A stretch of DNA of 64,000 nucleotides from positions 1 through 64,000 of the IMG/VR virus record IMGVR_UViG_3300029787_000001, one strand, 5' to 3'. Positions 1,496-64,000 of the stretch are shown here, piece by piece. The DNA is from a virus. The position numbers and the translations under genes were made by a program. How positions within the stretch are numbered: the first letter of the stretch is position 1; every line of letters starts with the position of its first letter. The notes under the pieces were generated by a model. It was given only the letters and a program-made list of their open reading frames with translations. It did not search any database and was not told the DNA's origin.

Positions 1496-2128
1496 ATGAA
1501 AAAAGTTATAACAGAATGGAAGGAATTCCTAACAGAAAGCTCAATAAGCCGCTCCTACGAACACATGCTCAGTCACGACACTGCGTTCATTACAGCATTC
1601 CGTGACGACGCGAAGGATGTAACTAAATGCATGCCCGGTCATAGCAAGAAGTTAGAGAACTTCGAGCGCAACAGGCAATTAAAGGCTGTTCTGCTGAATA
1701 AGGGCTACGGCGTAACTGCTGTTGACGGCACTTATGTGGAGGACTTCGGTACAGAAGCAGCAAAGGAGGTCAAAGAAGACTCTTTCTTTGTTGTGAACTT
1801 GAAAGATGACCCGAAGTTCAAAGACACAATAGAGGCATTATCAGAGCATTTCTGCCAAGATTCATTCCTTTTTGTTCCTCGTGGTGGAGAAGAATCATTT
1901 CTCGTTGGCACAAATGAGGCTGACTTTCCTGGCTATGGCAATGAAGAGGCAGCAGGCGAGTTCCTTGGAGGCAAAGAAGGCGAGTTTATGACCCGCGTTG
2001 GCAAGACAAAGCGCCCTATCAGATTTGCCGAAGGTCTTGAAACCAAAGCCAAGATGCAGAACAACACTAAGTTTCTTATCTCAAAGCTTGCTAAGCAAGT
2101 GCTACAGGAGATGAAGGGGGATAGTTGA
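1496..2128 (+). CDS. Phage protein, DUF3293-like, with N-terminal WKEFLTE tag
   Basis: ITAFR...N..RN..L..L...GY..E.SFFV pattern; ACTATTTA at 1472. Confidence 0.55.
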   Translation: MKKVITEWKEFLTESSISRSYEHMLSHDTAFITAFRDDAKDVTKCMPGHSKKLENFERNRQLKAVLLNKGYGVTAVDGTYVEDFGTEAAKEVKEDSFFVVNLKDDPKFKDTIEALSEHFCQDSFLFVPRGGEESFLVGTNEADFPGYGNEEAAGEFLGGKEGEFMTRVGKTKRPIRFAEGLETKAKMQNNTKFLISKLAKQVLQEMKGDS

Positions 2129-23033: not shown

Positions 23034-23035
23034 AA

Positions 23036-26942: not shown

Positions 26943-29891
26943 ATGTCTTTTGCGACTGATAAATGGTTTAAGCACCTACACGAAGAGTTACTAACAGAGG
27001 GTCTTGGAGACATCGGGTTATCCGAGTTGATGATAAACTTGATACGTGCGGCAATGCCTGATGCTTCCGAGAAAGGCAGGGTATGGGTTGGCAACGCTTG
27101 GAAGTCAGAAGACCCCGTAATGCTTAGGAGAAGCGGACCGCAGTTTTGGGTAGACGCTATGGAAATGTTGGAGAAAATCTCTAAGTCCGATGCCTTTGCA
27201 CAGTCAAGGTATGATGACGACCGAAACCCAGACGAAATCCCACCAAATGAGGCTGATAAAAATAACATCTTGGACAACGCCATAGAGACTTACAGACGCA
27301 GGGGCATGAGCAATTGGTCTAAAGCCCGCCGTAAGTTTATAAAGAAGGCAAGTCAAGCAAATATTCCAGATGAAGTGGTGATCAAAGCTGTCGCAGCACT
27401 TGATGATCTTGAGAGAGGCACTTGGGAAGACTTCAGTAACAGAAAAATAAGTAATGTCATCACGACTCTCAACCAAAACCCTAACAATTACGACATGATT
27501 AAGTCAATCCCGCCCGATGACTGGGATGAAGCTGAGATGGATTGTTATCAATTTCAGCAAGAACAAGAAGACCCGGATCAAATTATGCACACATTTGACG
27601 ATGGGTCTTATTGGTATGATCTTCAGTCTAGTAACTGCTCGGTCGAAGGGGACAGAATGGGGCATTGCGGCTCAGACCAACGAGGTACACTATACTCTCT
27701 ACGCAAGAAAGATGAGAATAAAAAGTTCTCAAGTTCCTATGTTACGATTGCTTATAACTCCTACGACAAGACCATTTACCAAATTAAAGGAAGAGCCAAC
27801 GAGGCTCCTCCCGAATCCGTTTGGGGACACATTGCTTGGTTTATCGACAAGACGGAGACCGTGAGGGTCGAAGAAAGAGGTGAATACTCTAACGACCAAG
27901 GAGGCTTCGATAGGATGACCGCTGGACTGATAGAGCGCACACGCGGAGTAGAGTTCCCAAACAGCCCTGAAGAAAGAGCCAAAGAATTACTCGAAGAGTG
28001 CGAAAACGTCCGAGAAAGATATTACAACACTGACAGACTAGAGGGCGTCAACTTGAACGGAGTTTGGGTCGATGACGACGACGGCGAAGAATACATGTTC
28101 TGGTACGACCAAGTTCGTGAGATTATAGTCCCGTTCATAGACATTGAGATGACGGAGGTGCTGGCTGCCAAGATCAACAAAAACGAAGGGGGCATCAAAG
28201 AGGCAATCATAGACATTATCAACGAAGAAGACCGGAACGACATCTTCGATCAACGGCAGTGGGAAGTAGAAATTGTTTCTGCGGTCGGTGCCGAGCCTTG
28301 GCTTGATGGGTTGGAAGATGCTCAGCGCCCCGATGAAGCAAGCTACTATTATGCCTTTTATGATCTTAGTGGAATTCAGGACTACTTTATGTATAGCAAC
28401 GGGAACAACATGGAGCCCGCTGGCTACGAAGAATTTTTAGACATAGCTTCAGAATTTGTCCAAGATATTTACGACGCGCAGGACGACATCCAAAGTCTCT
28501 TGATAGAAAGAAAGCTACTGAACCGATCGGGCGTAATGGACTACGCTGACAAAGTTAAACAAGAATTCAACAACTTCCGAGTCGTAGAGGGTGTTCGGAG
28601 CAATGAAATTGATGTTGTGTCTTCGGGTGTTCTGTTTAACACCACATTAGACGAGATGGACACCATTCTCTTCGCACTCAACTTCGCAGATCACCCTACA
28701 ATAAGAGGGGGCTTGAAACTCAATCGCTACGCATCAACTCCTGTTTTCAGGAAAGAGATAATAAAAGAGTTAGCCAAATCAGAAAAGGCTGCCGCAGATT
28801 TTGCCAAAAAGCAAATGAAGCTGAACTATGGTCCAGAATACGAGAAAAAGATCGACAGCATATGGGACACAGCAAGACTTTCAGAATTCTTTGAGTCTAA
28901 TTTGTTTGCTGGCATCAGAATTATTCGCAGCAAAACTGCTGATAACCCACGCCCCGCTCAAAAATTAGACTCTACCGTAAACCGATTTGACTACAAGTTC
29001 TCACTGAAGATCACAGGCGGCACATTGCCAGCCTTTGGTCCCTTTATGGAATATTATGACAACAATTTTGAGTTAATCACAAATGCCTTTTCAAAAGTAG
29101 TCAAGACAATGATTGCCGATAGGCTGAAAGACTTCAAAGCTAAGACAGGCAGCGACACAAACTTGCCTCTACAAGAGGCGCGCCCCAATCCAATTGATGT
29201 GCGAGTCTACGAAATTGATTTTGTTATGTCTTACCCCCTCGGTCAGGGCTTTGAAATCACCGACATCCACAACATCATTCGTGCGATTCCAGATGTGACA
29301 ACCGTTCGTTCAGTTGGCAACGCCAAGAAGTCCCAAGGCAACAGAACTATCACCTTACAGAAACTAAAGTTTGCTTTACGAGGACAGAAAAACAGAATGG
29401 AGTGGGTCAGGCAGATTTTGCTCCCACAGATCCACAAGATTAACAGCAGCATTCGCATCCACAAAGTTGATCGTGCTGATTTGGTTACTTCAAGCAAAGC
29501 TAGACTTGAGGAAACTTACTACAATTCAACCATGCGACAGTCGCCCGGCAGAACAACTCCCGTCCCTTCTATTCAAAGCTTGATTGATGATTGGGTAGAG
29601 GGCGGTGTCATGTACGATCAGCCAGTAAACCAAAACCTAACTCGCTACAGCGTGATGATGCCAGTGAAAGATCTGGAGCACCTTTGCGGTCGCGAAGCTC
29701 GCAAACATGGAAATCATTTTGATGCTGGTTACGAAAACTTTATTCAGAATGGTCCACGCGACCCTATTTACTTAGCGATTGGCAAAAATGGGAGAGCGAA
29801 GATTACTGGAAATGAAGACGATTTGCGTTATGCAATCAAAGCAGGAGTAGAAGAGGTCCCAGTGTTTATCTCTTATCAGCGCCAAGTTTAG
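26943..29891 (+). CDS. Large multi-domain probable virion protein (982 aa), C-terminal ParB/Srx-like segment
   Basis: ACTATTTA at 26915; W..L.EELLTE start; PIYL..G...ITGNE...A...G..EVPV end. Confidence 0.7.
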   Translation: MSFATDKWFKHLHEELLTEGLGDIGLSELMINLIRAAMPDASEKGRVWVGNAWKSEDPVMLRRSGPQFWVDAMEMLEKISKSDAFAQSRYDDDRNPDEIPPNEADKNNILDNAIETYRRRGMSNWSKARRKFIKKASQANIPDEVVIKAVAALDDLERGTWEDFSNRKISNVITTLNQNPNNYDMIKSIPPDDWDEAEMDCYQFQQEQEDPDQIMHTFDDGSYWYDLQSSNCSVEGDRMGHCGSDQRGTLYSLRKKDENKKFSSSYVTIAYNSYDKTIYQIKGRANEAPPESVWGHIAWFIDKTETVRVEERGEYSNDQGGFDRMTAGLIERTRGVEFPNSPEERAKELLEECENVRERYYNTDRLEGVNLNGVWVDDDDGEEYMFWYDQVREIIVPFIDIEMTEVLAAKINKNEGGIKEAIIDIINEEDRNDIFDQRQWEVEIVSAVGAEPWLDGLEDAQRPDEASYYYAFYDLSGIQDYFMYSNGNNMEPAGYEEFLDIASEFVQDIYDAQDDIQSLLIERKLLNRSGVMDYADKVKQEFNNFRVVEGVRSNEIDVVSSGVLFNTTLDEMDTILFALNFADHPTIRGGLKLNRYASTPVFRKEIIKELAKSEKAAADFAKKQMKLNYGPEYEKKIDSIWDTARLSEFFESNLFAGIRIIRSKTADNPRPAQKLDSTVNRFDYKFSLKITGGTLPAFGPFMEYYDNNFELITNAFSKVVKTMIADRLKDFKAKTGSDTNLPLQEARPNPIDVRVYEIDFVMSYPLGQGFEITDIHNIIRAIPDVTTVRSVGNAKKSQGNRTITLQKLKFALRGQKNRMEWVRQILLPQIHKINSSIRIHKVDRADLVTSSKARLEETYYNSTMRQSPGRTTPVPSIQSLIDDWVEGGVMYDQPVNQNLTRYSVMMPVKDLEHLCGREARKHGNHFDAGYENFIQNGPRDPIYLAIGKNGRAKITGNEDDLRYAIKAGVEEVPVFISYQRQV

Positions 29892-36429: not shown

Positions 36430-36468
36430 TAAAGGAAAGCCCCGCCCCCGGCTTTGTAGGGGGCTCAC

Positions 36469-36544
36469 GCACCTATAGCTCAATTGGAAGAGCATCGGTT
36501 TTCTACACCGAGGGTTGAGGGTTCGAGTCCTTCTGGGTGTACCA
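36469..36544 (+). tRNA. tRNA-Arg(TCT)
   Basis: TCGGT-TTTCTAC-ACCGA, GTTCGAG T-loop, CCA. Confidence 0.93.
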
Positions 36545-36597
36545 TTTAGCCGACTCTGGGCTTTATCAGAGAACAAATAAAAAGGAAACAGAAAGTA

Positions 36598-36750
36598 ATG
36601 CGTAACATTATGATTCTCGCAGCCGCCATCATGGTAGGTTGTGGAGACAAGGACGAGGACACTGGCAGCGACACTGCCGAGGCTCAGGACACCGACGATG
36701 GTGGAGAGCCAGAAGACACTGGTGGGGAAGACACCGCTGTCGTAGAGTAA
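36598..36750 (+). CDS. Small acidic lipoprotein-like protein
   Basis: MRNIMILAAAIMVG-C lipobox, then DT(G/A/D) repeats. Confidence 0.7.
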   Translation: MRNIMILAAAIMVGCGDKDEDTGSDTAEAQDTDDGGEPEDTGGEDTAVVE

Positions 36751-36758
36751 GTAAGAAG

Positions 36759-36787
36759 CCGCTGGCACACCGGTTAAAGTGTGCCAC
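36759..36787 (+). repeat. Hairpin repeat copy 1
   Basis: CCGCTGGCACACCGGTTAAAGTGTGCCAC, 8-bp stem. Confidence 0.95.
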
Positions 36788-36990
36788 ACATGCTCACCAC
36801 CAACATAGGGTCCGAGTAGGTACAGGGAACTGGCTTCAGCGCTAATGCTGACTAAGATGATCCAGTAACGGAAACAACGCTCACCCGTGAGCGGGTCATG
36901 CTAATGATGTTGGAAACAATGTATAGGACAAGTTGATCACTTGTCCGAAAAGACGCCTAACAGAGATTAGGAGTGTCCCTGACATTGCAA
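36788..36990 (+). ncRNA. Candidate structured RNA between two hairpin repeats
   Basis: At least six complementary stems, no RBS/ORF. Confidence 0.5.
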
Positions 36991-37019
36991 CCGCTGGCAC
37001 ACCGGTTAAAGTGTGCCAC
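36991..37019 (+). repeat. Hairpin repeat copy 2
   Basis: Identical 29-mer, 5 nt before tRNA-Gln. Confidence 0.95.
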
Positions 37020-37024
37020 TTTAT

Positions 37025-37100
37025 TGGGACGTGGCGCAATTGGTAGCGCATCGGTTTTTGGCACCGAGGGTTGTAGGTTCGAGTCCTACCGTCCCAGCCA
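37025..37100 (+). tRNA. tRNA-Gln(TTG)
   Basis: U1-A72, G73, loop TTTTGGC, CCA. Confidence 0.9.
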
Positions 37101-37266
37101 CTTAAGAGGAAATAACATGAGCACAGTAGAGTTATGTTTTGGAATTTTGATTTCTGCAACGGTCATTATTGCCGTGATTCAGTACAAACTTTCAGAGTCT
37201 CCCGATCGTCGTAAATAAAAACACTTGACACCCGCACCTCTCCGGGTTACAATAGAGAGGACACAA

Positions 37267-37352
37267 GCCAGCGTGGTGGAATGGTATACACAGCAGACTC
37301 AAAATCTGCCGGTCTTATGACCTTGCGAGTTCGAGTCTCGCCGCTGGTACCA
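37267..37352 (+). tRNA. tRNA-Leu(CAA)
   Basis: GCAGA-CTCAAAA-TCTGC, long variable arm, CCA. Confidence 0.94.
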
Positions 37353-37375
37353 CTTTTCAAACAGGATAAAGCAAA

Positions 37376-37768
37376 ATGGGCATTTTTATCGTAACAGCAA
37401 CTCACACGGACGACGATTATAAGCGTCCCCACGTAAGCAGTGAAACTGCGATGGCCACTTCTCACGAAGACGCTGTTGTGCGTGCAGTAGAGTTCTATCT
37501 TGAAAGGCTCGATGGTGGCTATTCTTTCGATTACCACAATCCATCAGGGTTCAATAAGGTAATCGAGCAGCACCGAAACAGCCCACAGACTCTATTCTCA
37601 GCACTTTACGATTACTTTGAGAGCAACCCAGAAGGAATGTTTACTGGCGAGTTTGTCCCAGAAACCCTAAATGTGACCATTAGCGAAAACGAACACGTCC
37701 CGCTTGATACAAAGCCAATCCTATCTATGGTTGACGAGGTTTCTCGTTACATCAGAGAGGAAATGTAA
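37376..37768 (+). CDS. Hypothetical protein
   Basis: 130 aa ORF between tRNAs. Confidence 0.7.
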   Translation: MGIFIVTATHTDDDYKRPHVSSETAMATSHEDAVVRAVEFYLERLDGGYSFDYHNPSGFNKVIEQHRNSPQTLFSALYDYFESNPEGMFTGEFVPETLNVTISENEHVPLDTKPILSMVDEVSRYIREEM

Positions 37769-37782
37769 CAATAGAATATTTT

Positions 37783-37858
37783 GGGTCTATAGCTCAATTG
37801 GCAGAGCATCGGACTTTTAATCCGCAGGTTCTGGGTTCGATTCCCAGTGGACCCACCA
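37783..37858 (+). tRNA. tRNA-Lys(TTT)
   Basis: Loop CTTTTAA, CCA. Confidence 0.94.
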
Positions 37859-37877
37859 TTTAAAATAAGGAGAAGAG

Positions 37878-38402
37878 ATGTTTAAGAAAGTTTTGGCATG
37901 CATATTGTGCCTGGGGTTGTCAACAGCCGCATACGCTCAGGCGCCCGTAGCCGAGGATGCAGACGCATCTAAGATGGACTGGAATACTCGCAAGGGCATC
38001 CGGTTTGGATACAACTATGCAAACAAGGCAGATGAGTCAGACAAGCTTCAGAGCCCACACATGTTTGTGATTGGCTTTGAGATGCAGCAGACAATGGACG
38101 GCGATTCGTGGCTCGACTTGCTTTTTATTCAGAACTTGACCATCAGTGGTTTGGACCAAAGTGTTGTTCTTCCATCTGGAAACGCGCTTGTCGGATTTGA
38201 AATCAAAGATGCACTACAGTTGGCAGTGGGCGCTAACGCCACTATCGTTGATCCTTCTGATGAGGACCACTATGTACATCTTGTTACTGCGGTCGGGTGG
38301 ACGCAGGATGCGGGAATCTTCAGCGTCCCAGTTCATCTTATCTTTGTCCCAGATGTCAATGACTATTATAGGGTTGCAGTTACTACCGGGATTAACTGGT
38401 AG
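37878..38402 (+). CDS. Secreted/outer-membrane beta-rich protein
   Basis: Signal peptide ending AYA, alternating beta strands, aromatic C-terminal W. Confidence 0.7.
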   Translation: MFKKVLACILCLGLSTAAYAQAPVAEDADASKMDWNTRKGIRFGYNYANKADESDKLQSPHMFVIGFEMQQTMDGDSWLDLLFIQNLTISGLDQSVVLPSGNALVGFEIKDALQLAVGANATIVDPSDEDHYVHLVTAVGWTQDAGIFSVPVHLIFVPDVNDYYRVAVTTGINW

Positions 38403-38422
38403 TCATTGTAAATAACCGCAGG

Positions 38423-38446
38423 GAGGCACGGGTTTACAGGTGCCTC
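38423..38446 (+). repeat. Variant of the GGCAC..GTGCC hairpin
   Basis: GAGGCAC-GGGTTTACAG-GTGCCTC, 7 nt before tRNA-Glu. Confidence 0.65.
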
Positions 38447-38453
38447 AACTTTT

Positions 38454-38528
38454 GCTCCCATAGTTTAGCGGTTAGAATGCCGGCTTTTCACGCCGGAGGT
38501 CGGGGTTCGATTCCCCGTGGGAGTACCA
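38454..38528 (+). tRNA. tRNA-Glu(TTC)
   Basis: CCGGC-TTTTCAC-GCCGG, CCA. Confidence 0.92.
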
Positions 38529-38533
38529 TTTTT

Positions 38534-38609
<76 letters not shown>

Positions 38610-38670
38610 CTTTCCACTTGACACCGTCAGCCCCTCCGGTTACAATAGAGGGGAGGCACAGAACACTTAT

Positions 38671-38745
38671 CGAGAACAACGCGCGGGGTGTGCGGCCAGT
38701 TTTGGGTACTGGAAGTGCCGGGTTCAACTCCCGGGTTCTCGACCA
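38671..38745 (+). tRNA. Atypical tRNA-Pro(TGG)
   Basis: C1-G72, A73, CCA, CCAGT-TTTGGGT-ACTGG, T-arm intact; non-canonical positions 8/14 and D-loop. Confidence 0.75.
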
Positions 38746-39058: not shown

Positions 39059-39265
39059 ATGTTTAAGGTCGGCGATGTCGTAAGAGGCAACACAGTTGAC
39101 ACCAGTCTATCAACTGCGTCCCAGAGAGCCTCCACTGGAATCATCACCAAGATCGATGAATGTGGTGCGATTTCGCTGTGTTGGCTTTTTGGTAAAGTCA
39201 AGTGCAAGGGCAAAGAGTTTGGCGGCTTTAGGAAACAAGAACTTGAACTGGTGAGCGAAGCATGA
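39059..39265 (+). CDS. Small MKVGD-family protein
   Basis: MFKVGDVVRG. Confidence 0.7.
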   Translation: MFKVGDVVRGNTVDTSLSTASQRASTGIITKIDECGAISLCWLFGKVKCKGKEFGGFRKQELELVSEA

Positions 39266-39444
39266 AAGTCGGTGACCTTGTGAAGTTTACTGCCGGGTTC
39301 GCTGGCGCTGAGCGCCGGCAACGCGGCATTGTCGTTTGTTTTGATAATGACAATGACCCAGTGGTTTTGTGGCTTGGTTCAGGGTGGAACGGCTACCGTG
39401 AGGCAAATTTTCGCAATCACATTGCAGTGCTTTCTGAGGCGTAG
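39262..39444 (+). CDS. Small MKVGD-family protein
   Basis: MKVGDLVKF. Confidence 0.7.
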   Translation: MKVGDLVKFTAGFAGAERRQRGIVVCFDNDNDPVVLWLGSGWNGYREANFRNHIAVLSEA

Positions 39445-41329: not shown

Positions 41330-41575
41330 ATGGCTAACGGCTATGCCCTTTTTAAGAGCCTTCATCCTGTCGGCGGTCTCTATCGCTACAAGGCGCCGTA
41401 TGCTCCACAGGGCTTAAACCCTTGGAGTGACGGCAAGGTCTATCTCCTAACAAAGTGGGAAAGACCAGAGGGCATAGACAAAAAGTCCCCTCTTCTCAAC
41501 GCTTTCTTCCTTGTTAATGGAACGGAGCATTGTGTTGACATTTCTTTCTTCAAGTATCTTAAGGCAGTAGAATGA
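41330..41575 (+). CDS. Small early protein
   Basis: Own promoter (41280), AGGAG RBS. Confidence 0.7.
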   Translation: MANGYALFKSLHPVGGLYRYKAPYAPQGLNPWSDGKVYLLTKWERPEGIDKKSPLLNAFFLVNGTEHCVDISFFKYLKAVE

Positions 41576-41757
41576 AAGTCGGTGATCTGGTAAAGTATGC
41601 TTCAAATGATTCACCACTGGGTCTCTTTAGACGGAGCGGCGGCATTGTCACTGCCCAAAATAACAATCTTTTTGGTACTATTGTTTACTGGTTCAGAGAT
41701 AAACAGCGTACAGAAGAACAGGAAAAATACTTGGTGGTGATCAGTGAAAGTAGGTGA
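41572..41757 (+). CDS. Small MKVGD-family protein
   Basis: MKVGDLVKY...VISESR. Confidence 0.7.
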   Translation: MKVGDLVKYASNDSPLGLFRRSGGIVTAQNNNLFGTIVYWFRDKQRTEEQEKYLVVISESR

Positions 41758-41926
41758 TTTGGTAAAGCGGAAGACCCCTCCACCTCCAATGGGCTCCATC
41801 TGGAAAGGAATCATTATTGGAATGGGAGAAGAAAGCAACTTTGAGTGGATGGTTTACGACTTCTACGAGTCTTTTATTTGGTACGCCGATGCCGACGAGT
41901 TGGAGGTGATCAGTGAATGTGGGTGA
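41744..41926 (+). CDS. Small MKVGD-family protein
   Basis: MKVGDLVKR...VISECG. Confidence 0.7.
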   Translation: MKVGDLVKRKTPPPPMGSIWKGIIIGMGEESNFEWMVYDFYESFIWYADADELEVISECG

Positions 41927-42143
41927 TTTGGTAATGTGGAGGCATCCAGGCGATCGCAGCAAGCCAGAGTTTGGAATGATTATTGCGTTGCGTCCTTATC
42001 TGAAGCCACGCTTGGAGATCAAAGTTGTTGATCTTTGTGGAGAGCGCCAAGGCGGCACAGACTGGTGGGATGCGGGAGACTGGGAGGTAATCTCAGAAAT
42101 AGACTTGACAGATGACGCTGAACCGGCTACATTAAAAGAATAA
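41913..42143 (+). CDS. Small MKVGD-family protein
   Basis: MNVGDLVMW. Confidence 0.7.
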   Translation: MNVGDLVMWRHPGDRSKPEFGMIIALRPYLKPRLEIKVVDLCGERQGGTDWWDAGDWEVISEIDLTDDAEPATLKE

Positions 42144-55650: not shown

Positions 55651-55839
55651 ATGCCAGATATACAAATAGGAGACCTCGTGAAAGTAGAGAACAAACACTT
55701 AGAAGCGAGTCATAAATTGAGATCGAAGAATTGTTGGCTAGTTGTGGAAACAAAAGTAACCTACCAGATAGATGTGGCGTTATGCATACAAGGAAGCAGA
55801 AAGGAATGGATTAGCTTTGGCATATTGGAGAAAGTATGA
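55651..55839 (+). CDS. Small KOW-like protein
   Basis: IQIGDLVKV. Confidence 0.65.
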   Translation: MPDIQIGDLVKVENKHLEASHKLRSKNCWLVVETKVTYQIDVALCIQGSRKEWISFGILEKV

Positions 55840-55958: not shown

Positions 55959-56327
55959 ATGAAGATTACAAAGGCAAGATTGAAGGAAATAATCAAGGAA
56001 GAACTTGAGAATCTAAACGAAAGCCTAACCGGCACTATGGATGCAGAACGCAGATTGGCTATGGACCAAGGTCCCCGCGCATCAATGGCTAGAAAGAGCC
56101 AAGGCGCAGAGCTAAGAAGACTAGCTAGAAGCAAAGGAGAAGAGTCTCCCGAAGTTGCAGCCGCTAGACAACAATTGGTAGACAAGGGCATGCTCGACGC
56201 TCGCACGGGCAGATCTTTAACGCGCGGCAATAGCATAAATGACGTAGAAGACGCTCTTAAGGCTATGAACACCGATGCGGCTACTATGGATGCTATCATA
56301 CGCAAGCTAGAAGCCCTCTACAGGTAG
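55959..56327 (+). CDS. MKITK-tagged protein
   Basis: AGGAG RBS; MKITKARLKEIIKEELENLNE; ACTAGTTA at 55920. Confidence 0.75.
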   Translation: MKITKARLKEIIKEELENLNESLTGTMDAERRLAMDQGPRASMARKSQGAELRRLARSKGEESPEVAAARQQLVDKGMLDARTGRSLTRGNSINDVEDALKAMNTDAATMDAIIRKLEALYR

Positions 56328-56357
56328 TGTAAAAAAACAAGTAGCACACTTTACCGC

Positions 56358-56600
56358 ATGCCAAGAATTCCATCATCCCCGCTCCGTTACAAGGTCGGGG
56401 ATTTGGTTTGTCTATCGTATGACGAGTTTAAGTTGTATGGCTACGGCATAGTGATGGAAGGTCTGCCGAATAGCCTCTATAGAGTCTACTGGTTTAAAGA
56501 AAAATCCACTGAAATAGAGACGACCTTCGACATTCTGCCCGCTGAGTTGCCGGAAGGCTGGATGCAAAGCTCACACGAGACACATGTCGAGAACACGTGA
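56358..56600 (+). CDS. Small KOW-like protein
   Basis: YKVGDLV...GYGIV. Confidence 0.65.
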   Translation: MPRIPSSPLRYKVGDLVCLSYDEFKLYGYGIVMEGLPNSLYRVYWFKEKSTEIETTFDILPAELPEGWMQSSHETHVENT

Positions 56601-56802
56601 ATCTTCAGCATCGATAGCAGTCGGTGATTTAGTCGTGTTAAAACACGATTATTTCCGGCAAGTAGGCTACGGAATAGTATTGCATCCCAGCATTATGCCC
56701 CACAGGTGCTCGGTGTACTGGATAGGGCTGGACATGACCCTGGTAGAATTCTACAACGATTTAGAAAAGCCACCTTGCGGTCCCCACGCGCGGGCGTTAT
56801 AA
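56584..56802 (+). CDS. Small KOW-like protein
   Basis: IAVGDLV...GYGIV. Confidence 0.65.
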   Translation: MSRTRESSASIAVGDLVVLKHDYFRQVGYGIVLHPSIMPHRCSVYWIGLDMTLVEFYNDLEKPPCGPHARAL

Positions 56803-56838
56803 TACGGGTGTAAGCCAAATAATTTCTTTGGAGGCACT

Positions 56839-57162
56839 GTGACGTGGAAAACTTTTTTAATTGCATTCTCGGTAGGCTGTGCGGGCGACATTGCCCATTA
56901 TGATAGTGCAGAACCGCTGTATCCTATCGAGGAATGGACGTGTTCTCACAATGAGTCCCGTTTTTCCGCCCATGTGGAGGCATCTACCATTGATTTGGAA
57001 GAGTGGTCGGCAATAGACTTCTTTATTCATGACCATGATAGCAGCTATAGCTTGCCAATGAAGAAGCACGAAGATGGCTCCTGGCGAACCTACGGGAATA
57101 TCTATGAGCTTGACTGCAATTCTGATAACTTGGGTACCTCCTGGGTCTACTACGAATTGTAA
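56839..57162 (+). CDS. Lipoprotein-like protein
   Basis: GGAGG RBS; FLIAFSVG-C lipobox. Confidence 0.65.
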   Translation: MTWKTFLIAFSVGCAGDIAHYDSAEPLYPIEEWTCSHNESRFSAHVEASTIDLEEWSAIDFFIHDHDSSYSLPMKKHEDGSWRTYGNIYELDCNSDNLGTSWVYYEL

Positions 57163-57372
57163 TGTTTAATGTGTTTTGAGAATGCGCCTGTAGTGGTGGT
57201 TTTGACGATGCGGAGGTGGAAACTTTTAGCGCAAGAAAAAGTTGCGGAAAAATAGGCGGCAAAGCAAGATAATTTTTTTGCGCGTTTTGGTTACGGGCAT
57301 AGGGGTTTGCGGACTATTTAAGTGTGCTCCCGTTGTTATGTGTGTGGGAGTTTATAAAGGAACTCTCACAAC

Positions 57373-58134
57373 ATGTTTAAACTAAAATCTATTTTATTCG
57401 CTCTCGTTTTTGCCTTGGGTGGTGTCGCTTATGCTAAAGACGCCAACTCTGGACCGCTCACTAACCAAACTGTGTCCATAATCGTATCCGACGCAAGCAT
57501 GTCCATGACTGAACGCAAGGTTCGTGATGCGGCTGTTCGTGTGTTTACTGCGGGGGGCGGACATGGTTCTGGCTCTTACATCAAGCATAAGGACTTTTAT
57601 TTTGTTTTGACGGCTCAGCACGTAGCAGATGGTGCTCTTTATTCTGATTACAGAGTGAAGAAGGGCTCAGAAATCAAGAAGGCAATCCTTGTTTGGTCTG
57701 ATAAAACAGCCGACATCGCTGTTCTTGCTCTAACAAGCGAGTTTGAGACCATTTCTCCAATGGCTTTCAAGACAACATCTGACATTCCTGAGGTAGGAAC
57801 GGAGATTTCTTACTCTGGTTACCCCTCAAGGCACCAATTGATGTCTATTCGTGGTAGAGTTGCTGGTTATGAGCAGAAAATTGGGGCGGGGACGCAGATA
57901 ATGCTTCACACCTACGGGTGGTTTGGCTGCTCTGGTTCTGTGATCTACAATAAAAAAGAAGAAATCATTGGAGTTTTGTGGGGAGTTGATGTAGAATACT
58001 ACCCTGGCATGGCTGTTGTCGAAGAGATGGTCTGGGTTATCCCAGTTCAGAAACTAAAAGTAGACGAAGTTGTGGAAAACACATGCAAAATAAAAGGAAT
58101 GAAGCAACAATTGTCCCGCTTCTGTAGGAAGTGA
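57373..58134 (+). CDS. Exported trypsin-like serine protease
   Basis: Signal peptide, LTAQH, DIAVL, GCSGS. Confidence 0.85.
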   Translation: MFKLKSILFALVFALGGVAYAKDANSGPLTNQTVSIIVSDASMSMTERKVRDAAVRVFTAGGGHGSGSYIKHKDFYFVLTAQHVADGALYSDYRVKKGSEIKKAILVWSDKTADIAVLALTSEFETISPMAFKTTSDIPEVGTEISYSGYPSRHQLMSIRGRVAGYEQKIGAGTQIMLHTYGWFGCSGSVIYNKKEEIIGVLWGVDVEYYPGMAVVEEMVWVIPVQKLKVDEVVENTCKIKGMKQQLSRFCRK

Positions 58135-58135
58135 A

Positions 58136-58825
58136 TTGAAGCTACTAATTGAAAATTGGAGAAAGTTTGTCAACGAAGGCGTGAATTCTAATTTCACTGT
58201 CTCGATGGACCCTCAAGACTTTTTGACCCTAACTTATCAGGACGATGCCGACATTGAAGGCAGATCCGACTACATTCTTGGAATGCCGGGCGGATTTGAT
58301 AAGACAAAAGCCGGCAAATTGTCTCTTGTTATCAAGAAATGCTGGGATGATGGCGTAGATAAGGTTATTTCCCACGCTGGACGTGCTCGCTCTATGGCTG
58401 CTATGAAGTCTGGGGTGAAGCAGATGCCAGTAATCTTGACTTTTGTTAACTGCGACGAGAAGCCCGTGCGCGGAATGCCAAGTCTGAATTTTATTTCTGA
58501 TAGATTGGAAGGTCAATTTGATAATTCTTCTATCTCAGTAGATAAGATAGGCAAATACGAATCCCAAAGGGCTCTTGATCTTGGCACAAGAACAGAAATG
58601 TCAACAGGAGAACTGTTAAAAACCCTACGAATCACTTTTCTAGAGAAAGCTACAAATGATTATAGAATGGCTGATTTTGTTTCGGACCTAAATAAAGAAT
58701 ATAATTTTATGCTCTCAGGCGAACCCGAACAGGTGAAGGTTATGGTAAAAGATGGACTGCGCTTTCCGGGGTTTGAGTCGGATCCTCCCGAAGATTCCAA
58801 TGTAAAGGTGTTAAATAAAGAATAA
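58136..58825 (+). CDS. MKLLxENW-tagged protein with ParB/Srx-like segment
   Basis: MKLLIENWRKFVNE; SHAGRAR.MAA...G....PV. Confidence 0.75.
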   Translation: MKLLIENWRKFVNEGVNSNFTVSMDPQDFLTLTYQDDADIEGRSDYILGMPGGFDKTKAGKLSLVIKKCWDDGVDKVISHAGRARSMAAMKSGVKQMPVILTFVNCDEKPVRGMPSLNFISDRLEGQFDNSSISVDKIGKYESQRALDLGTRTEMSTGELLKTLRITFLEKATNDYRMADFVSDLNKEYNFMLSGEPEQVKVMVKDGLRFPGFESDPPEDSNVKVLNKE

Positions 58826-58827
58826 CA

Positions 58828-59469
58828 ATGAAACTACTGCTTGAAAATTGGCGCGCTTATCTGGATGAAGAGCAGATAAACGAAAAAATGATGCTGAAAC
58901 CCGGTCCGCAGGGCTGGGATCTCTACGCACAGTTGGTTGGCGATGCCTATTTGGCTGCTCCCAAGTTTGAACAGAGGGCAGTCCCGCATTTTCAAGCTAT
59001 GACACCCTTTCTGGAAAAAATGTTTAAGAGGATCTCAAGCAGAGTAGACATAGAATTCGTTGATTACCACCCCTATAACACAGCAGCAGAGCTAAGAGAT
59101 GCAGTAAACAGCACTGGAAAGATGAAAGTTGCTACAATTGACGCCGAACATGATGTGTTTGACGAAATTACGAACGCAAAATTCAGAGCGGTCCACGATT
59201 ACATGTCCCACATTCAGGCAATCGGCTCACGAGGAACCGAATTTGATTTGAGAGGGGAACTTGCCTCTTATAATGCTCACCTCAAAACAATGCCACAGGA
59301 GTCTATTCCTGCCTTATTTACCGAGATTGTCGGACAGACTTGTGCTTACCACGCTGGTGGCGGCACTTTCGCAGAACAGAAGATCTGTCTATTAGATGGC
59401 TTTGATTACATCAATCTTGGTGTTGTCGAAGGCTATGACATAGTTAATAAGGAATTGGTAAAGAAATGA
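58828..59469 (+). CDS. MKLLxENW-tagged protein
   Basis: MKLLLENWRAYLDE; FRAVHDYMSH. Confidence 0.8.
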   Translation: MKLLLENWRAYLDEEQINEKMMLKPGPQGWDLYAQLVGDAYLAAPKFEQRAVPHFQAMTPFLEKMFKRISSRVDIEFVDYHPYNTAAELRDAVNSTGKMKVATIDAEHDVFDEITNAKFRAVHDYMSHIQAIGSRGTEFDLRGELASYNAHLKTMPQESIPALFTEIVGQTCAYHAGGGTFAEQKICLLDGFDYINLGVVEGYDIVNKELVKK

Positions 59470-60119
59470 AACTACTACTTGAAAATTGGCGAAAGTTCTT
59501 GACTGAAAATGAGGCGGCTTACTTCCCTTGGCTAGAAGAATTAGAAGCGCAAGGTGGAGAAGCCCTTATGGGTCCTGATTTTCAACAAGCAGGCTCAGGA
59601 GCATTCCGTGTTGTCTTCAAGCCAAAAGGAGATGAGGACCATGTCATCAAGCTATCGAAAGATCCTCGCAACAATTGGATGAACAAGATAGAGTCCGAAA
59701 CAGCCAATTCTTACCCCGATTTGTTTCCAAAGACATTTGCTCATGCTGATGATTGGGAATGGATTGTCCAAGAGGCTGTCGAAGTGCTGACCCGAAGAAA
59801 CGAGCAGCAAATGCGTGTTATGTTGCAGAAGACTTTTCCAAACATCTATGTTGTCTTCAAGGGTGCAACTCTAAAAGATCATGAGCTTTCTGGCTTATGG
59901 AGCGACATTGTTGATGCAGCAAGGGGTCCTTACGCAACAAAAGACCAGAAGATTTTTGATTTTGGAATAAAGAACGAAAAAGCCTTCATCCAGCTTGCTT
60001 CAGCTATCTCTAAATTTAAGATAGACAGCGAAGATCTGGGTTATGGCAACATAGGAATAAATGAACAAGGACAATTAAGGATCTTAGATGCCTCTGTGCT
60101 TCTCAGACCAAAGGAATAA
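59466..60119 (+). CDS. MKLLxENW-tagged kinase-like (PK/APH fold) protein
   Basis: GSGAFRVVF, VIKL, ED.GYGNIG, ILDAS. Confidence 0.7.
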   Translation: MKLLLENWRKFLTENEAAYFPWLEELEAQGGEALMGPDFQQAGSGAFRVVFKPKGDEDHVIKLSKDPRNNWMNKIESETANSYPDLFPKTFAHADDWEWIVQEAVEVLTRRNEQQMRVMLQKTFPNIYVVFKGATLKDHELSGLWSDIVDAARGPYATKDQKIFDFGIKNEKAFIQLASAISKFKIDSEDLGYGNIGINEQGQLRILDASVLLRPKE

Positions 60120-60121
60120 TT

Positions 60122-60601
60122 ATGAAACTACTACTTGAAAATTGGCGTCAATTTATGAATGAGGATGTGCGAGTCACATTTAAAAAAGCAATTGATTTGG
60201 TCTGCCCCCCAGCAACACAGGACTTGGAACTTAACACGAAGAACCGTGATTCCGCAATTCATGCTGAACACATTCAGTACGGTCCTCTGAATGTCGGAAT
60301 GCCCGGTGACTACTGGGAAGAAATCGCCGACTACTGGAACACAACTGAAGAGGCAGCCGAAGCTTCTAACTGTGGGGTTTGCACTGCTTTTGACATTTCT
60401 CCTAGAATGTTGGAATGCATGCCCGGCGAAACATCCGATGAAGACGGTGTTCTCGGCTATTGCTGGATGCATAACTTCAAGTGTCACTCTGCGCGTGCTT
60501 GTAGAACTTGGGCAAAGGGTGGACCCATAGAGGAAGATTCAGTTTCTGCTGATTGGCAGGAGCGCTCAAACATAGGTAAAGAGAATGAAACTACTGATTG
60601 A
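60122..60601 (+). CDS. MKLLxENW-tagged Cys-rich protein
   Basis: CGVC...F, GYCWMHNFKCHSARACRTW. Confidence 0.8.
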   Translation: MKLLLENWRQFMNEDVRVTFKKAIDLVCPPATQDLELNTKNRDSAIHAEHIQYGPLNVGMPGDYWEEIADYWNTTEEAAEASNCGVCTAFDISPRMLECMPGETSDEDGVLGYCWMHNFKCHSARACRTWAKGGPIEEDSVSADWQERSNIGKENETTD

Positions 60602-61271
60602 AAACTGGCGTAAGTTCTTGGCTGAAGAAGAAGTTCTAGTTGAGAAATGCTGGGACGGCTACAGACAAGCTGGGCTTAAAAAGAAAGGTGACCGAATGGT
60701 CCCCAACTGTGTCCCAATTGGTGGAAAGAAAGACGAAGCAATGGAGATAAATGAAGAGCAAGGTCAATACATCGGCACTATTGACGATGTGGGCTCTGAC
60801 CTTTATCGCATCTCCAAGCGCTATGGAGACAAGGGCGACAATTATGAACGATTTCAGAAGGGAGCCAAGGTCATAAGGTCCCGTAACACGTCCGCAGATG
60901 ACCAGCAGCCCTATCTAAATTCTGATGGAGACCCAGAGCATAGGATTTATTTTTTCGGCTCTGGAGACGACGCTAAGGCTGCTATGATGTCCGACACACA
61001 AGAGTTGGAAGCAATCGTCGGCGACTTTTCTGACGCAGACAAGGAAAAAGGCATCAATGAGAATTTGTTGTTAGTCCGCATTTCGATGAACCAAGTTCCA
61101 AAAGAGGTTGAATTCTTCACCGATTACGAATTGGAAGGAACTCCCTACGATGCTATTTATGGTGCGTACCCAGATGGTCGGGCTTGGACTCTCGCCCCCA
61201 AATCAAATGACATTCAGTTAGCGACCGATCTACTTAACTATGAAGAGGACGATTACTATGAAGATTACTAA
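60585..61271 (+). CDS. MKLLxENW-tagged protein with CWDGY..VPNCVP module
   Basis: MKLLIENWRKFLAE; CWDGYRQAGLKKKGDRMVPNCVP. Confidence 0.8.
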   Translation: MKLLIENWRKFLAEEEVLVEKCWDGYRQAGLKKKGDRMVPNCVPIGGKKDEAMEINEEQGQYIGTIDDVGSDLYRISKRYGDKGDNYERFQKGAKVIRSRNTSADDQQPYLNSDGDPEHRIYFFGSGDDAKAAMMSDTQELEAIVGDFSDADKEKGINENLLLVRISMNQVPKEVEFFTDYELEGTPYDAIYGAYPDGRAWTLAPKSNDIQLATDLLNYEEDDYYEDY

Positions 61272-61482
61272 AGAAAGACTAAAGCAAATTATCAAGGAAG
61301 AGCTTGAGAATGTTATGGAAGTTGAGCGCGCGTGGTGCGTTGGCTTTGAAAAAGACGGCAAAATGCACCACGAACAGGTCAATGCTGACGCTGGTGGAGT
61401 TGCCGAGAGAAAAATAAAAAAGAAGCACGATGTGGGCGATGCCGCAATCAAGAGCACCAAAGAAGGTAAGTGTCCTCGATGA
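61258..61482 (+). CDS. MKITK-tagged small protein
   Basis: MKITKERLKQIIKEEL; TCTACTTA at 61229. Confidence 0.75.
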   Translation: MKITKERLKQIIKEELENVMEVERAWCVGFEKDGKMHHEQVNADAGGVAERKIKKKHDVGDAAIKSTKEGKCPR

Positions 61483-61700
61483 AAATTACAAAGACAAGAC
61501 TAAGGCAGATCATCAAGGAAGAACTCACCCGTCAAGACAAAGCCGATGTTAAGAAGATGGTCCAAGACGAACTTGGCAAGCTCCTTAAGAAGAAGGATGC
61601 TAAGGACCAAGTGGGCGAGATCGTAAAGAAGATTATGAAGAAGCTTTACAAGGATCTGTCACTAGAACACCCCTACATCATTGACAGGATTAAGATCTGA
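61479..61700 (+). CDS. MKITK-tagged small protein
   Basis: MKITKTRLRQIIKEEL. Confidence 0.75.
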   Translation: MKITKTRLRQIIKEELTRQDKADVKKMVQDELGKLLKKKDAKDQVGEIVKKIMKKLYKDLSLEHPYIIDRIKI

Positions 61701-61715
61701 GGTTAAATTAAGGCT

Positions 61716-61919
61716 GTGAGAGAGGACAACATCGATCCCTTCGCAGCCCAGTTTCCACAGGCAACTGTTGATGAGTGGGTTTATTATCCTAAAACCAAAT
61801 TATGTGGACTAGTTATTGGTGTTGACAACCAAACTGGTTTCATGCAGGTTCATTGTTTCGAAACTATGGATCTAAGATGGCTAACCATTTATAATTTTGG
61901 TCAATATTTGGTTTTATGA
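61716..61919 (+). CDS. Small SH3-like protein
   Basis: G.VIGVD pattern; GTG start. Confidence 0.55.
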   Translation: MREDNIDPFAAQFPQATVDEWVYYPKTKLCGLVIGVDNQTGFMQVHCFETMDLRWLTIYNFGQYLVL

Positions 61920-62098
61920 ATGAAGGTGATCTAGTTAGACTCAAAACACGGTATCCAATTTGGTTATATTCTTATGGTCTCTCTGACGGAGACTTCGGAA
62001 TTATAACCAAAATTGGCGAAGAAGAGGTGGTGGTCTACTGGCTAAAAATCAGAAGACTGTGTTCTGTAAAACCAAATCTCATTGAAGTTGTTCAATAG
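61916..62098 (+). CDS. Small KOW-like protein
   Basis: MNEGDLVRL...FGII. Confidence 0.65.
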   Translation: MNEGDLVRLKTRYPIWLYSYGLSDGDFGIITKIGEEEVVVYWLKIRRLCSVKPNLIEVVQ

Positions 62099-62107
62099 GA
62101 GAACATA

Positions 62108-62410
62108 ATGAAAGACAAATTTATTATTGGATTGTTTATGGTGAGTGCCTGCTTGACAGCGCTCTCGCTCCACTACAGGCTTAACTCAATCAACACAGAA
62201 GTGAAAAGAGTTCACGTAGAATCAATTGTTTCTTCTGGAAAGGCAATTTATTTGCCTGGAAGTGTGTGCGTGTTAAAAGCCACTTCTGAGATCGATGTAA
62301 GCAAAATGCGCGAATTTGCGGCTGCCTGCATCAACTCACATCAAGAATGGTTGCTAATCAACAACGGCAAAACTAATTACAGTGATGCCACTGAGAAAAC
62401 ACAGCCCTAG
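62108..62410 (+). CDS. Exported/TM hypothetical protein
   Basis: AGGAG RBS, hydrophobic N-terminus. Confidence 0.65.
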   Translation: MKDKFIIGLFMVSACLTALSLHYRLNSINTEVKRVHVESIVSSGKAIYLPGSVCVLKATSEIDVSKMREFAAACINSHQEWLLINNGKTNYSDATEKTQP

Positions 62411-62648
62411 TGATTTAAAAGCTGGAATTTTAATCCAAGATATCCAAACAGGAGATCTCGCCCTGTTAATCAAAAGGGTTGACTTATTTGAGTTTGTCGA
62501 AGACGAACAGCCTTTGTGGATTTGGGAAATAACTTGGACAGGTCCAGCCACAGATTCCTATAATCGACACATGCCTTTTATTGAAGAGGCGGTGCTGGGT
62601 CTCCTAGACGGTGGTGTCTGGGAAATAAAAGGCGATGACGGACATTAG
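62382..62648 (+). CDS. Small SH3-like protein
   Basis: Resembles the next ORF (WxITW); ACTAATTA at 62372. Confidence 0.6.
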   Translation: MMPLRKHSPSDLKAGILIQDIQTGDLALLIKRVDLFEFVEDEQPLWIWEITWTGPATDSYNRHMPFIEEAVLGLLDGGVWEIKGDDGH

Positions 62649-62913
62649 TGACTTGCGTGATGCCGCTTCACATGTTATCTTACGTGTGGGTGACATGATT
62701 TATGATGTCCGCACTAAATCACGAGGGTTTCTACGCAAACGAGAAAGAAGAATAGACATCGTGGAAGATGACATCTTCATTTGGTGGATCACTTGGTTTT
62801 CTCAGGACCAAGACACCGGGTTCAACAACGTTGAATACATTGAAGAAGAAGGTCTCAAGATGTCGATTATAATAGGACTCGTAGAAATCAACAGCATCAA
62901 ACAAGGAGAATAA
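62635..62913 (+). CDS. Small KOW-like protein
   Basis: LRVGDMI...WWITW. Confidence 0.65.
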   Translation: MTDISDLRDAASHVILRVGDMIYDVRTKSRGFLRKRERRIDIVEDDIFIWWITWFSQDQDTGFNNVEYIEEEGLKMSIIIGLVEINSIKQGE

Positions 62914-62914
62914 G

Positions 62915-63349
62915 ATGCCCAACTGGAATGTTTACAAGGTGTTTGCTAGCGGCAAAAGGGCTAAAAGTCCTTACACAACTTTCGAAGCTGACAAGGCTCA
63001 GCATTTTTTTGAAAACATTCTTCCCACGCTCACACCAAAGCTGAAGAAGTCTAGCTGGGTCATTCTTGATGTAGAGGCATCACAGGAGCGCCCAGAAGGT
63101 GGCACGATGACCGAAGAGGACTTGGTTACAAAAAAGCGTAATCGCTTTCTAACTGGCATCGCCGTAGAAAAATTCCCAGACATCGCTGATAAGGGCGTCT
63201 CCACCTGTCTTATGATGAATGAGGGGACAGATTGGAAATGGGCTTGGTGCTTGGCTGAAGGGGCTACCCATAAGTTTATTGGCTTCTTGTCTGAAAAGTT
63301 TGACACTAGAAAGGAGGCTGTTGCGTGGATAGAGGAGGTTGGCACTTAG
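62915..63349 (+). CDS. Hypothetical protein
   Basis: AAGGAG RBS, 144 aa. Confidence 0.7.
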   Translation: MPNWNVYKVFASGKRAKSPYTTFEADKAQHFFENILPTLTPKLKKSSWVILDVEASQERPEGGTMTEEDLVTKKRNRFLTGIAVEKFPDIADKGVSTCLMMNEGTDWKWAWCLAEGATHKFIGFLSEKFDTRKEAVAWIEEVGT

Positions 63350-63561
63350 CCCACAAAATAGGAGACCTAATAAAAGTGGTGGAAAGAACTACAATAAACC
63401 TTCATAATGTAACCACAGAAATTGGTGATTTGGGAGTTGTTGTAAGTTGCCCAAAAGAAACAAGAGGAATCTTGTTTGTTGAAGTCTACATGGTTAGGAC
63501 AGGCACAGTGCGATGGTTCTCGCCACAAGAAATAGATATAATTTCCAACATAGACGAGTAG
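63325..63561 (+). CDS. Small KOW-like protein
   Basis: KIGDLIKV...IGDLGVV; start uncertain. Confidence 0.55.
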   Translation: MDRGGWHLAHKIGDLIKVVERTTINLHNVTTEIGDLGVVVSCPKETRGILFVEVYMVRTGTVRWFSPQEIDIISNIDE

Positions 63562-63591
63562 CTCTCTATTTATTAATAGAGGGTTTTCGCA

Positions 63592-63759
63592 ATGAAGCAG
63601 ACCAATAGTTTTGTCGATTCCATGTCTCTGACATGTGTTTTGATAAACATTGGTCTGTTCTTATTTGCGTGCTGGTCTGGCTATTTACAAATACAACTAC
63701 TAGCACTATTTAATGTTGCTTGTTTTTTATTGTATTTTCTTATACTGGGGCGTAAATAA
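63592..63759 (+). CDS. Small two-TM protein
   Basis: TCTATTTA at 63565; 55 aa hydrophobic. Confidence 0.6.
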   Translation: MKQTNSFVDSMSLTCVLINIGLFLFACWSGYLQIQLLALFNVACFLLYFLILGRK

Positions 63760-64000
63760 TGTATCAAAAATTTTGGAACCAGTTCTTGGTTGAGCAAGAT
63801 GAGCTTGCTAGACCCACATTTAATGTAAGTGATGTCGCGTCTACAAGACCAGAGCCCGCACCAACACGTTCTTATCCATCTCCCTACACCACAGGTGTTG
63901 GGGCTTATTTGCTTTCCAAGGGTTATGATCTAGACAGCAAACTTGGTGGTGGCTTCGATGGAGAGGTCTACGCAGCGATAAATAAAAAAACAGGACAGAA
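63759..64000 (+). CDS. Ser/Thr protein kinase-like, N-terminal part (cut by window edge)
   Basis: MYQKFWNQFLVE tag, then YDLDSKLGGGFDGEVYAAINKKTG (subdomain I). Confidence 0.7.
   Translation, partial: MYQKFWNQFLVEQDELARPTFNVSDVASTRPEPAPTRSYPSPYTTGVGAYLLSKGYDLDSKLGGGFDGEVYAAINKKTGQ

Follow-up and report, generated by a model that had tools for sequence, protein, structure and literature searches.

Two recurrent N-terminal tags on unrelated proteins of a marine T4-like phage, candidate prohead-targeting signals

Tagged genes of the window and the complete genome

The stretch of DNA analyzed here, called the window throughout, is the first 64 kb (64,000 nucleotides) of one 191,359-bp viral record rated complete (IMG/VR: IMGVR_UViG_3300029787_000001), and its source is an uncultured marine, distantly T4-like phage. 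Two short peptides recur at the very start of otherwise dissimilar proteins of this phage. The first, which we call the ENW tag, reads MKLL(L/I)ENWRxFxxE or a near variant and opens 10 genes; the second, the KIT tag, reads MKITKxxLKxIIKEE and opens at least six.

A tightly packed run of genes (57373–61700) holds five ENW genes and two KIT genes, all on the + strand. The first ENW gene (58136..58825) has a TTG start and encodes 229 residues with the tag MKLLIENWRKFVNE; its cargo, the part that follows the tag, is rare, with three homologues, and contains a GRARS motif. The second (58828..59469, 213 residues, tag MKLLLENWRAYLDE) belongs to a conserved marine family with 354 homologues, and the third (59466..60119, 217 residues, tag MKLLLENWRKFLTE) matches phrog_4301. 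These are followed by a 159-residue protein with seven Cys residues (60122..60601, tag MKLLLENWRQFMNE), whose cargo is the only one of the five adjacent ENW cargos to be conserved at the DNA level (in five of nine complete relatives). The last is a 228-residue protein (60585..61271, tag MKLLIENWRKFLAE) in which the tag is succeeded by a CWDGY...PNCVP mini-module and then by a body of unknown type.

KIT tags in the window open three small proteins, likewise on the + strand, and were scored with a hidden Markov model (HMM) of the tag. The gene at 55959..56327 (122 residues, MKITKARLKEIIKEELENLNE) scores 37 bits at Met1 and has AGGAG 8 nt upstream, the one at 61258..61482 (74 residues) scores 42 bits, and the Lys-rich protein at 61479..61700 (73 residues) scores 38 bits. 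The tags of the three read MKITK(A/E/T)RL(K/R)(E/Q)IIKEEL. The five consecutive ENW starts (58136–60585) and these three KIT starts had been named in an original prediction made from the DNA letters, and every one of them lies where it was placed. Ahead of the KIT start at 55959 are 41 in-frame codons that look like the remnant of an MxxGDLV gene.

The original prediction had also listed variants of the ENW tag at three positions, two of which are real. At 1496..2128 (+ strand), the variant MKKVITEWKEFLTE is carried by a protein with an S-adenosylmethionine (SAM) lyase domain (residues 50–156; PF23780, 8.2e-11). A 380-residue protein beginning at 63759 (+ strand; 63759..64000, continuing to genome position 64901) starts with MYQKFWNQFLVE and has a weak protein-kinase N-lobe. 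The third, a 982-residue protein (26943..29891, + strand), is doubtful: CTATTTATAG precedes it, and its start, MSFATDKWFKHLHEE, has His in place of the second aromatic residue and matches neither the tag pattern nor either tag HMM.

Running the tag HMMs over the whole genome, a check suggested with the original prediction, gave matches at Met1 only (26–42 bits for true copies, below 10 bits for all else) and added further copies. Beyond the window, ENW-like starts were found at genome positions 64898 ((GTG)KEIINEWRQFMTE, on a NUDIX hydrolase cargo, 3.8e-18), 71049 (MMKLIIESFRKFLTE), and 148102 (MSKKMKVIMESWDKFVLQE). Additional KIT starts lie at genome positions 139602, 142844, and 148906, with weaker KIT-like starts at 140051, 149272, and 133976. 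Over the 267 open reading frames (ORFs), the pattern W-x-x-[FYW]-[LIVM]-x-E begins eight times within the first 20 residues (5,340 positions), compared with once in 56,021 internal positions. The placement of the tag copies at gene starts is not due to chance.

Two tag-like stretches stand apart from these copies. An 80-residue ORF at genome positions 68884–69126 starts MMSKWRDFLDG, which resembles the tag but has no Glu; in the T4 signal, Asp at the cleavage site stops processing and leaves targeting intact (PMC9026906). A gene with the candidate late motif described below (genome 184954–185499 and 185529) contains two internal KIT-like stretches, ...HLLQVIKEEYAAVLAE and MKLTESHVRQVIKEEYEALLEE.

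Tag anatomy, selection, and exchange

We searched IMG/VR for the ENW tag with a degenerate DNA pattern, forcing W8 and F/Y11 in a first scan and leaving the start codon unforced in a second. The ENW pattern was present in at least 120 stretches, frequently as two to five tandem copies, and the KIT pattern likewise in at least 120. Among the matches listed, which comprise 167 unique ENW tags, two unforced positions stand out: 96% of the tags have Leu, Ile, Val, or Met at position 12, and 85% have Glu at position 14. From position 15 onward the information in the logo drops to approximately 0.3 bit. The two forced aromatic residues also appear in the phage's own variants and in homologues that were found through their cargo (the best 120 SAM-lyase homologues and the best 120 of the 354 members of the 58828 family). 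In the KIT matches listed, three unforced positions are conserved, with Glu at residue 14 in 99% and at residue 15 in 89%, and an aliphatic residue at 16; a softer stretch that includes L20 and E22 follows, and conservation ends near residue 22. A Met codon stands exactly three codons upstream in 162 of 185 ENW cores and is replaced by GTG or TTG in most of the others; about three are truly internal. Overall, 88% or more of the tags open their protein.

The original prediction had named a conserved translation-initiation region among the findings that would overturn it. Among the ENW matches listed (163 unique tags), Leu3 is encoded by six codons and Arg9 by six, and position 12 alternates between Leu and Ile codons. 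Upstream, the DNA shows a Shine–Dalgarno-like purine run and is not conserved otherwise, and tagged genes abut or overlap their neighbors. This free choice of codons, together with the lack of conservation upstream, leads us to conclude that selection acts on the peptide and not on the DNA, and a role as a translation-initiation region or RNA motif was rejected on the same two grounds. This also bears on a broader alternative, in which the tags set the amount of protein made, as a translation-initiation enhancer, a repressor target, or an N-terminal degron of late accessory proteins. The location of the tags at the very start of the reading frame, with an A-rich ATG AAA first, would suit such a role. 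It is nevertheless very unlikely given the wide synonymous variation and the lack of any conserved upstream RNA, and given that the conserved residues are hydrophobic or aromatic and lie 8–14 codons into the gene.

The tags can be exchanged on one and the same cargo. Nearly all of the best 120 of the 354 homologues of the 58828 cargo retain the ENW tag, and one orthologue (P0085, 69% identical) instead starts MKLTKSRLRHIIREEL...PLNE, with the same body joined at the same point. The residues LNE are kept at the junction of tag and cargo in both versions. SAM-lyase orthologues mostly start MKKI(I/L)NEWNxFLNE, and some start MNINELRALVKQTIKE. The original prediction had proposed a two-address system, in which the two tags lead to two destinations. 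That proposal is not supported, as orthologues of both the 58828 cargo and the SAM lyase bear either tag; since the tags are exchanged on the same cargo, ENW and KIT look, from these sequences, more like variants of a single type of signal than like two destinations.

Modularity also shows in a small insert. In an orthologue of the 58136 protein, a CWDGY...PNCVP mini-module of 33 residues sits precisely at the junction of tag and body. In the window, the same mini-module in gene 60585 (60642–60715) has 13 residues between its two motifs, stands after the ENW tag, and shows a 74-nt DNA match (80%) to gp114, which lies in the structural module of cyanophage S-RIM8.

At the DNA level, the tags recur as near-identical repeats of 30–50 nt across genes and genomes. 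The DNA most widely common to the region and nine complete relatives consists of 33–50-nt tag segments (81–97% identity, at several places per genome) together with the cargo gene 60122. This sharing, and the frequency of tandem arrays of three to five tagged genes, is what would be expected if the tags were mainly recombination linkers at gene starts, comparable to the mobile cassettes that carry regulatory sequences in T4-type phages, with no separate function for the peptide. We regard that explanation as highly improbable, for residues are kept across the 163 unique tags while codons vary, the aromatic and Glu positions are conserved in the protein, and the same cargo can bear either of two unrelated tags. 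Recombination is likely an added benefit of the tag DNA rather than its sole role.

Cargo, head-assembly module, and candidate late motif

The proteins behind the tags are unrelated, as had been predicted: the cargo parts fall in separate BLAST clusters. Among the matches listed, ENW proteins are mostly enzyme-sized (median length of 203 residues, 183 proteins), and the bodies of 171 of them fall into 91 clusters. KIT proteins are shorter (median of 104 residues, 201 proteins), and the bodies of 182 of them fall into 158 clusters. When representatives of 87 ENW clusters were compared with Pfam, the census returned AAA_33/zeta-toxin-type kinases, NUDIX, protein kinase, RNase_T, HAD, GNAT, and others, with no match for most of the 87. 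Pfam and PHROG searches of the phage's head-module and tagged proteins were almost empty. It is barely credible that the tag is the leader peptide for a modifying enzyme, of the radical-SAM or ribosomally synthesized and post-translationally modified peptide type. The cargos are folded enzymes and not peptide precursors, and this candidate was rejected because the complete 191-kb genome is without a radical-SAM enzyme (no match to PF04055; the control was found in 14 of 14 genomes).

To the cargo of 58828 we could assign a structural relationship. An AlphaFold model built from a 47-sequence alignment has a mean predicted local distance difference test (pLDDT) score of 88.8. Residues 1–16, at pLDDT below 50, are modeled as a separate helix detached from the domain, and the body scores above 90 from about residue 21. 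No solved structure was matched by sequence, by Foldseek, or by VIA-align (best Z of 3.0). In a viral model library, the domain matches one found inside long phage proteins (E-values of 8.5e-12 to 1e-7; TM of 0.6–0.73), and the named matches are 'phage head morphogenesis domain' (MuF), 'ART-PolyVal-like', and 'large polyvalent protein associated domain'. Iyer et al. (2017) argued that polyvalent and MuF-type proteins are packaged and injected with DNA (PMC5512222). The modeled match is a hint, independent of the tag, that the cargo may belong to an injected-effector repertoire.

The functional labels that had been attached to individual cargos fared less well. For the 58828 protein, no Pfam hit to DUF3293 appeared even at E-values up to 1, and its DUF3293-like label is unsupported. 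For 58136, called ParB-like, a weak similarity to ParB_N was found; it stays a weak lead because the fold predicted from four sequences was unusable (pLDDT of 35), and a PDB profile search was empty. The kinase-like label applies weakly to the 63759 protein. Kinase-like motifs in the 59466 protein were seen by eye only; this protein has no sequence relative in the PDB, and the 59466 and 63759 proteins show no similarity to each other.

Nearly all genes of the phage are on the + strand, and tblastn with T4 proteins located the large terminase (143.1 kb), portal (144.7 kb), gp21 prohead protease (149.8 kb), major capsid protein gp23 (161.2 kb), and tail sheath (168.8 kb). By capsid protein, its closest cultured relatives are Microcystis phage Mel-JY01, at 36% identity, and Flavobacterium phage immuto, at 47% across a portion of the protein. 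The phage encodes its own Peptidase_S77 prohead protease (149754–150353), which passes the Pfam cut-off at 5.6e-30. Tagged genes lie close to it: between portal and protease are the ENW-like start at 148102, the KIT start at 148906, and the KIT-like start at 149272. Relatives, too, have tagged genes no more than 1.5 kb away from their protease gene, such as MKLLLEHWNRYLQE, MTSKMKIILERWDSYL, and MKLSREDLERMIKEE. The protease itself has an ENW-like start, MKLLREFYELC, and the conserved gene that follows it (150350–150781) starts MNKSQLKKLIKPVVKE.

Other proteins of the head module carry similar sequences. With a slash marking the cleavage point in T4 and its counterpart here, the phage's own gp23 has ...KELLRE/STT, like the T4 gp24 site LLRE/STT, and the phage's scaffold candidate (159871–161202) starts ...LLEQAIVDAK, like the T4 gp22 start MLKEQLIAEA. 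In cultured immuto, the starts of two head-module genes contain ...KEHFIAEA and ...HKWQAKFLKE. The exact tags are absent from immuto, and in style these starts appear to bridge the T4 and marine tags.

A short motif, CTATTTA, marks gene starts across the genome, with 48 copies on the + strand against six on the − strand. It is usually found 20–40 nt ahead of the start codon and precedes the sheath, scaffold-like, baseplate-type, and most structural genes. As the original prediction stated, tagged genes follow a candidate late motif. A copy of CTATTTA at 57314..57320 (+ strand) stands 59 nt upstream of the gene at 57373, which opens the packed run; another at 1473 precedes the SAM lyase gene, with CTATTTATAG 23 nt upstream of 1496; and copies at 63566, 63681, and 63706 precede 63759. 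One copy (26916) is also ahead of the doubtful start at 26943, and further copies in the window include those at 9045, 18674, and 31183. The T4 late motif TATAAATA occurs only four times per strand in the genome. CTATTTA is a candidate for the late promoter of this lineage, where it would replace TATAAATA. The first gene past the motif at 57314, immediately ahead of the five ENW genes, encodes an untagged trypsin-like serine protease with a signal peptide (57373..58134, + strand; PF13365, 6.8e-13).

Elsewhere in the window are genes for a DnaE-type Pol III alpha polymerase (4359–7802), a PurZ-like adenylosuccinate synthetase homologue (9903–10940; a hint of 2-aminoadenine DNA), and a GroEL-type chaperonin (22970–24616). 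Eight tRNA genes (36087–38745) lie upstream of the tagged-gene region, which extends from 55959 on. About 20 small ORFs (60–115 residues) start M(K)VGDLV..., frequently with a ...VISE(A) end (e.g., 120–308, 3863–4263, 34760–34951, 39059–39444, 41572–42143, 55651–55839, 56358–56802, and 63325–63561). They look like a family of whole-length paralogues interleaved with the tagged genes.

Given the tag anatomy and distribution, the encoded protease, the gene positions, and the modularity observed, we consider it probable, with appreciable doubt, that both tags are prohead-core targeting propeptides of a much expanded T4-type system. We infer docking, cleavage, packaging, and injection as follows. 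As a prohead assembles, the tags would attach freshly synthesized proteins to its scaffolding core, where the T4-type prohead protease would cut after a conserved Glu, which we predict to be E14 for ENW and a Glu within residues 14–22 for KIT. The mature proteins would remain inside the capsid and be delivered to the host together with the DNA. The enzymes under ENW tags (SAM lyase, NUDIX, the kinase-like proteins, and nucleases in relatives) may act at DNA entry, for example against restriction or signaling defenses. Many KIT proteins may instead be core or internal proteins rather than enzymes, because they are mostly small and include genes in the gp67/gp68 position. The near-identical tag DNA repeats would allow cargo genes to be exchanged by recombination. 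Every indirect test of head loading that was run came out in favor of the original prediction: the N-terminal location, the aliphatic-x-Glu end, the S77 protease, the gp67/gp68 slot, the late-type motif, the detached tag of the 58828 model, and the MuF-linked domain. No homology to the T4 capsid-targeting sequence (CTS) was detectable.

A conserved, helix-prone N-terminal peptide on varied proteins is, by itself, all that the data show, and such a peptide could dock its bearers to some other machine or compartment, be it a GroEL-type chaperonin, the tail or baseplate, a membrane, or a common partner. The phage does encode a GroEL, and acidic cargo would be unfavorable beside packed DNA. We nonetheless judge docking elsewhere to be unlikely. 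It leaves unexplained the aliphatic-x-Glu end of the tag, the tagged genes that flank the protease gene, the ENW-like start of the protease, and the MuF-linked cargo domain; moreover, the amphipathicity of the tags as helices was not significant against shuffled sequences.

Several observations weigh against prohead-core targeting. The residue that follows E14 is often Glu or Asp, whereas the T4 sites read here have Ala, Ser, or Gly. With a median isoelectric point of 4.9, most of the cargo is acidic, unlike the basic internal proteins (IPs) of T4. The ENW HMM scores −3.9 to −5.9 bits on T4 IPI, IPII, and IPIII, so that no homology is detectable, and the tag HMMs give about 0 bits on the T4 internal proteins and 3.6 bits on gp67, without a significant alignment. 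Neither tag occurs in S-RIM8, Mel-JY01, immuto, or T4 with up to three mismatches. Peptidase_S77 is encoded in all seven ENW-bearing and all six KIT-bearing records that are at least 90% complete, but this co-occurrence discriminates weakly, as T4-like phages probably dominate large marine viral contigs, and is consistent with targeting to the head rather than diagnostic of it. The sizes of the tag-bearing fragments, with their estimated completeness, suggest genomes of approximately 180–200 kb for ENW and 145–293 kb for KIT. Finally, the label 'late' for CTATTTA derives solely from the structural genes that it precedes.

The T4 CTS has been described on three internal proteins, from a handful of coliphages. 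The system proposed here would be a T4-like design with new sequences, two classes, and hundreds of cargo families, in abundant and otherwise inaccessible ocean phages. A bolder form of the proposal, that in a marine T4-like branch (145–293 kb) two interchangeable head tags load hundreds of exchangeable, separately encoded enzymes (SAM lyase, NUDIX, kinases, and nucleases among them) and the tag DNA serves as the recombination joint by which cargo genes pass from phage to phage, is plausible to us, if somewhat short of probable. Were it true, the loading of tagged enzymes would be a virion-borne counterpart of polymorphic toxin and effector systems. Packaging, if it takes place, would assign a location (the head) and a timing (DNA entry) to a large block of unknown marine viral genes and would suggest candidates for pre-packed counter-defense enzymes, such as an injected SAM lyase. 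The combination of tag and S77 protease would then offer a simple sequence rule for predicting virion cargo in metagenomes, and the tags themselves could be used to load proteins into engineered phage heads.

Comparison with known systems

The closest known counterpart is the T4 CTS of IPI, IPII, and IPIII (Mullaney & Black 1996, as reviewed in PMC9026906 and PMC3012670). T-even internal proteins are a diverse set with only the CTS in common (PMC3012670). In the T4 record, IPII and IPIII start MKTYQEFIAE and IPI starts MKTFKEFTSTTTPVSTITE; gp23 is cut at ...GSFLTE/A, and gp24 starts MAKINELLRE/STT. In the IPIII tag, residues 4 and 7 are reported to be the main determinants of targeting, and residues 8 and 10 those of processing (PMC9026906). 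The ENW residues W8, F/Y11, L12, and E14 have the same spacing as Y4, F7, I8, and E10 of the T4 CTS, four residues further from Met. An a priori pattern drawn from this arrangement, aromatic-x-x-aromatic-aliphatic-x-Glu, is found at 12 of 56,021 internal positions of the phage proteome, and its occurrence at the tag end by chance is therefore unlikely. The original prediction that the tags end as the T4 CTS does is borne out at the level of sequence by the aliphatic-x-Glu at ENW positions 12–14. The KIT tag is without aromatic residues and so lacks the two-aromatic targeting determinant.

The absence of detectable homology leads us to class the tags as working like the CTS and not as its homologues. 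They share with it a short N-terminal peptide on unrelated proteins, the spacing, an end of the gp21-type motif, and an encoded S77 protease. They differ in length and number: the T4 CTS has 10–19 residues, compared with 14 and approximately 22 residues in two classes here, and T4 has three tagged genes, compared with at least 16 clear ones in this single genome. The T4 cargos are small and basic, whereas across the relatives of this phage hundreds of cargo families appear, many of them enzyme-sized and acidic. Searches with tblastn of the tag and a KIT protein against cultured phages returned nothing meaningful, and we found no description in the searchable literature of the tag strings or of a CTS in cyanophages or marine phages.

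Gene order offers additional parallels. The T4 ip genes flank the tRNA/rnaC/rnaD island, with ipII and ipIII downstream, and the tagged genes here likewise lie downstream of the tRNA island. The slot between portal and protease, occupied by gp67 and gp68 in T4, is the site of KIT- and ENW-like genes in this phage. T4 gp67 contains the tag-like LIKEEK...NFLIE, which gives no significant alignment, and Pfam and PHROG searches of the head-slot proteins were empty. Marine cyanomyoviruses have been reported to be without gp67 and gp68 (PMC2984593, PMC1079782).

Outside the CTS, a precedent for a packaged and injected enzyme is T4 Alt. In the giant phages phiKZ, 201phi2-1, and SPN3US, a protease related to gp21 cuts many of the head-internal proteins after Glu, and the injected cargo is large (PMC5694885, PMC7411985, PMC9026906). 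The propeptides of phiKZ-type phages are long, with no one short tag in common, and these phages are of a different lineage. The polyvalent and MuF-fused effectors (PMC5512222) resemble the tagged set in that varied enzymatic domains are delivered with the DNA, and the two sets have NUDIX, kinase, GNAT, and ParB-type domains in common; by its model, the cargo domain of 58828 has the same structure as a domain inside polyvalent proteins. Polyvalent proteins combine 2–15 disparate domains in one polypeptide and are anchored by MuF or portal, unlike the proteins described here, which have one body each at a median of 203 or 104 residues. Where the polyvalent design fuses many domains into one chain, this phage would use one gene per domain, each with its own short tag.

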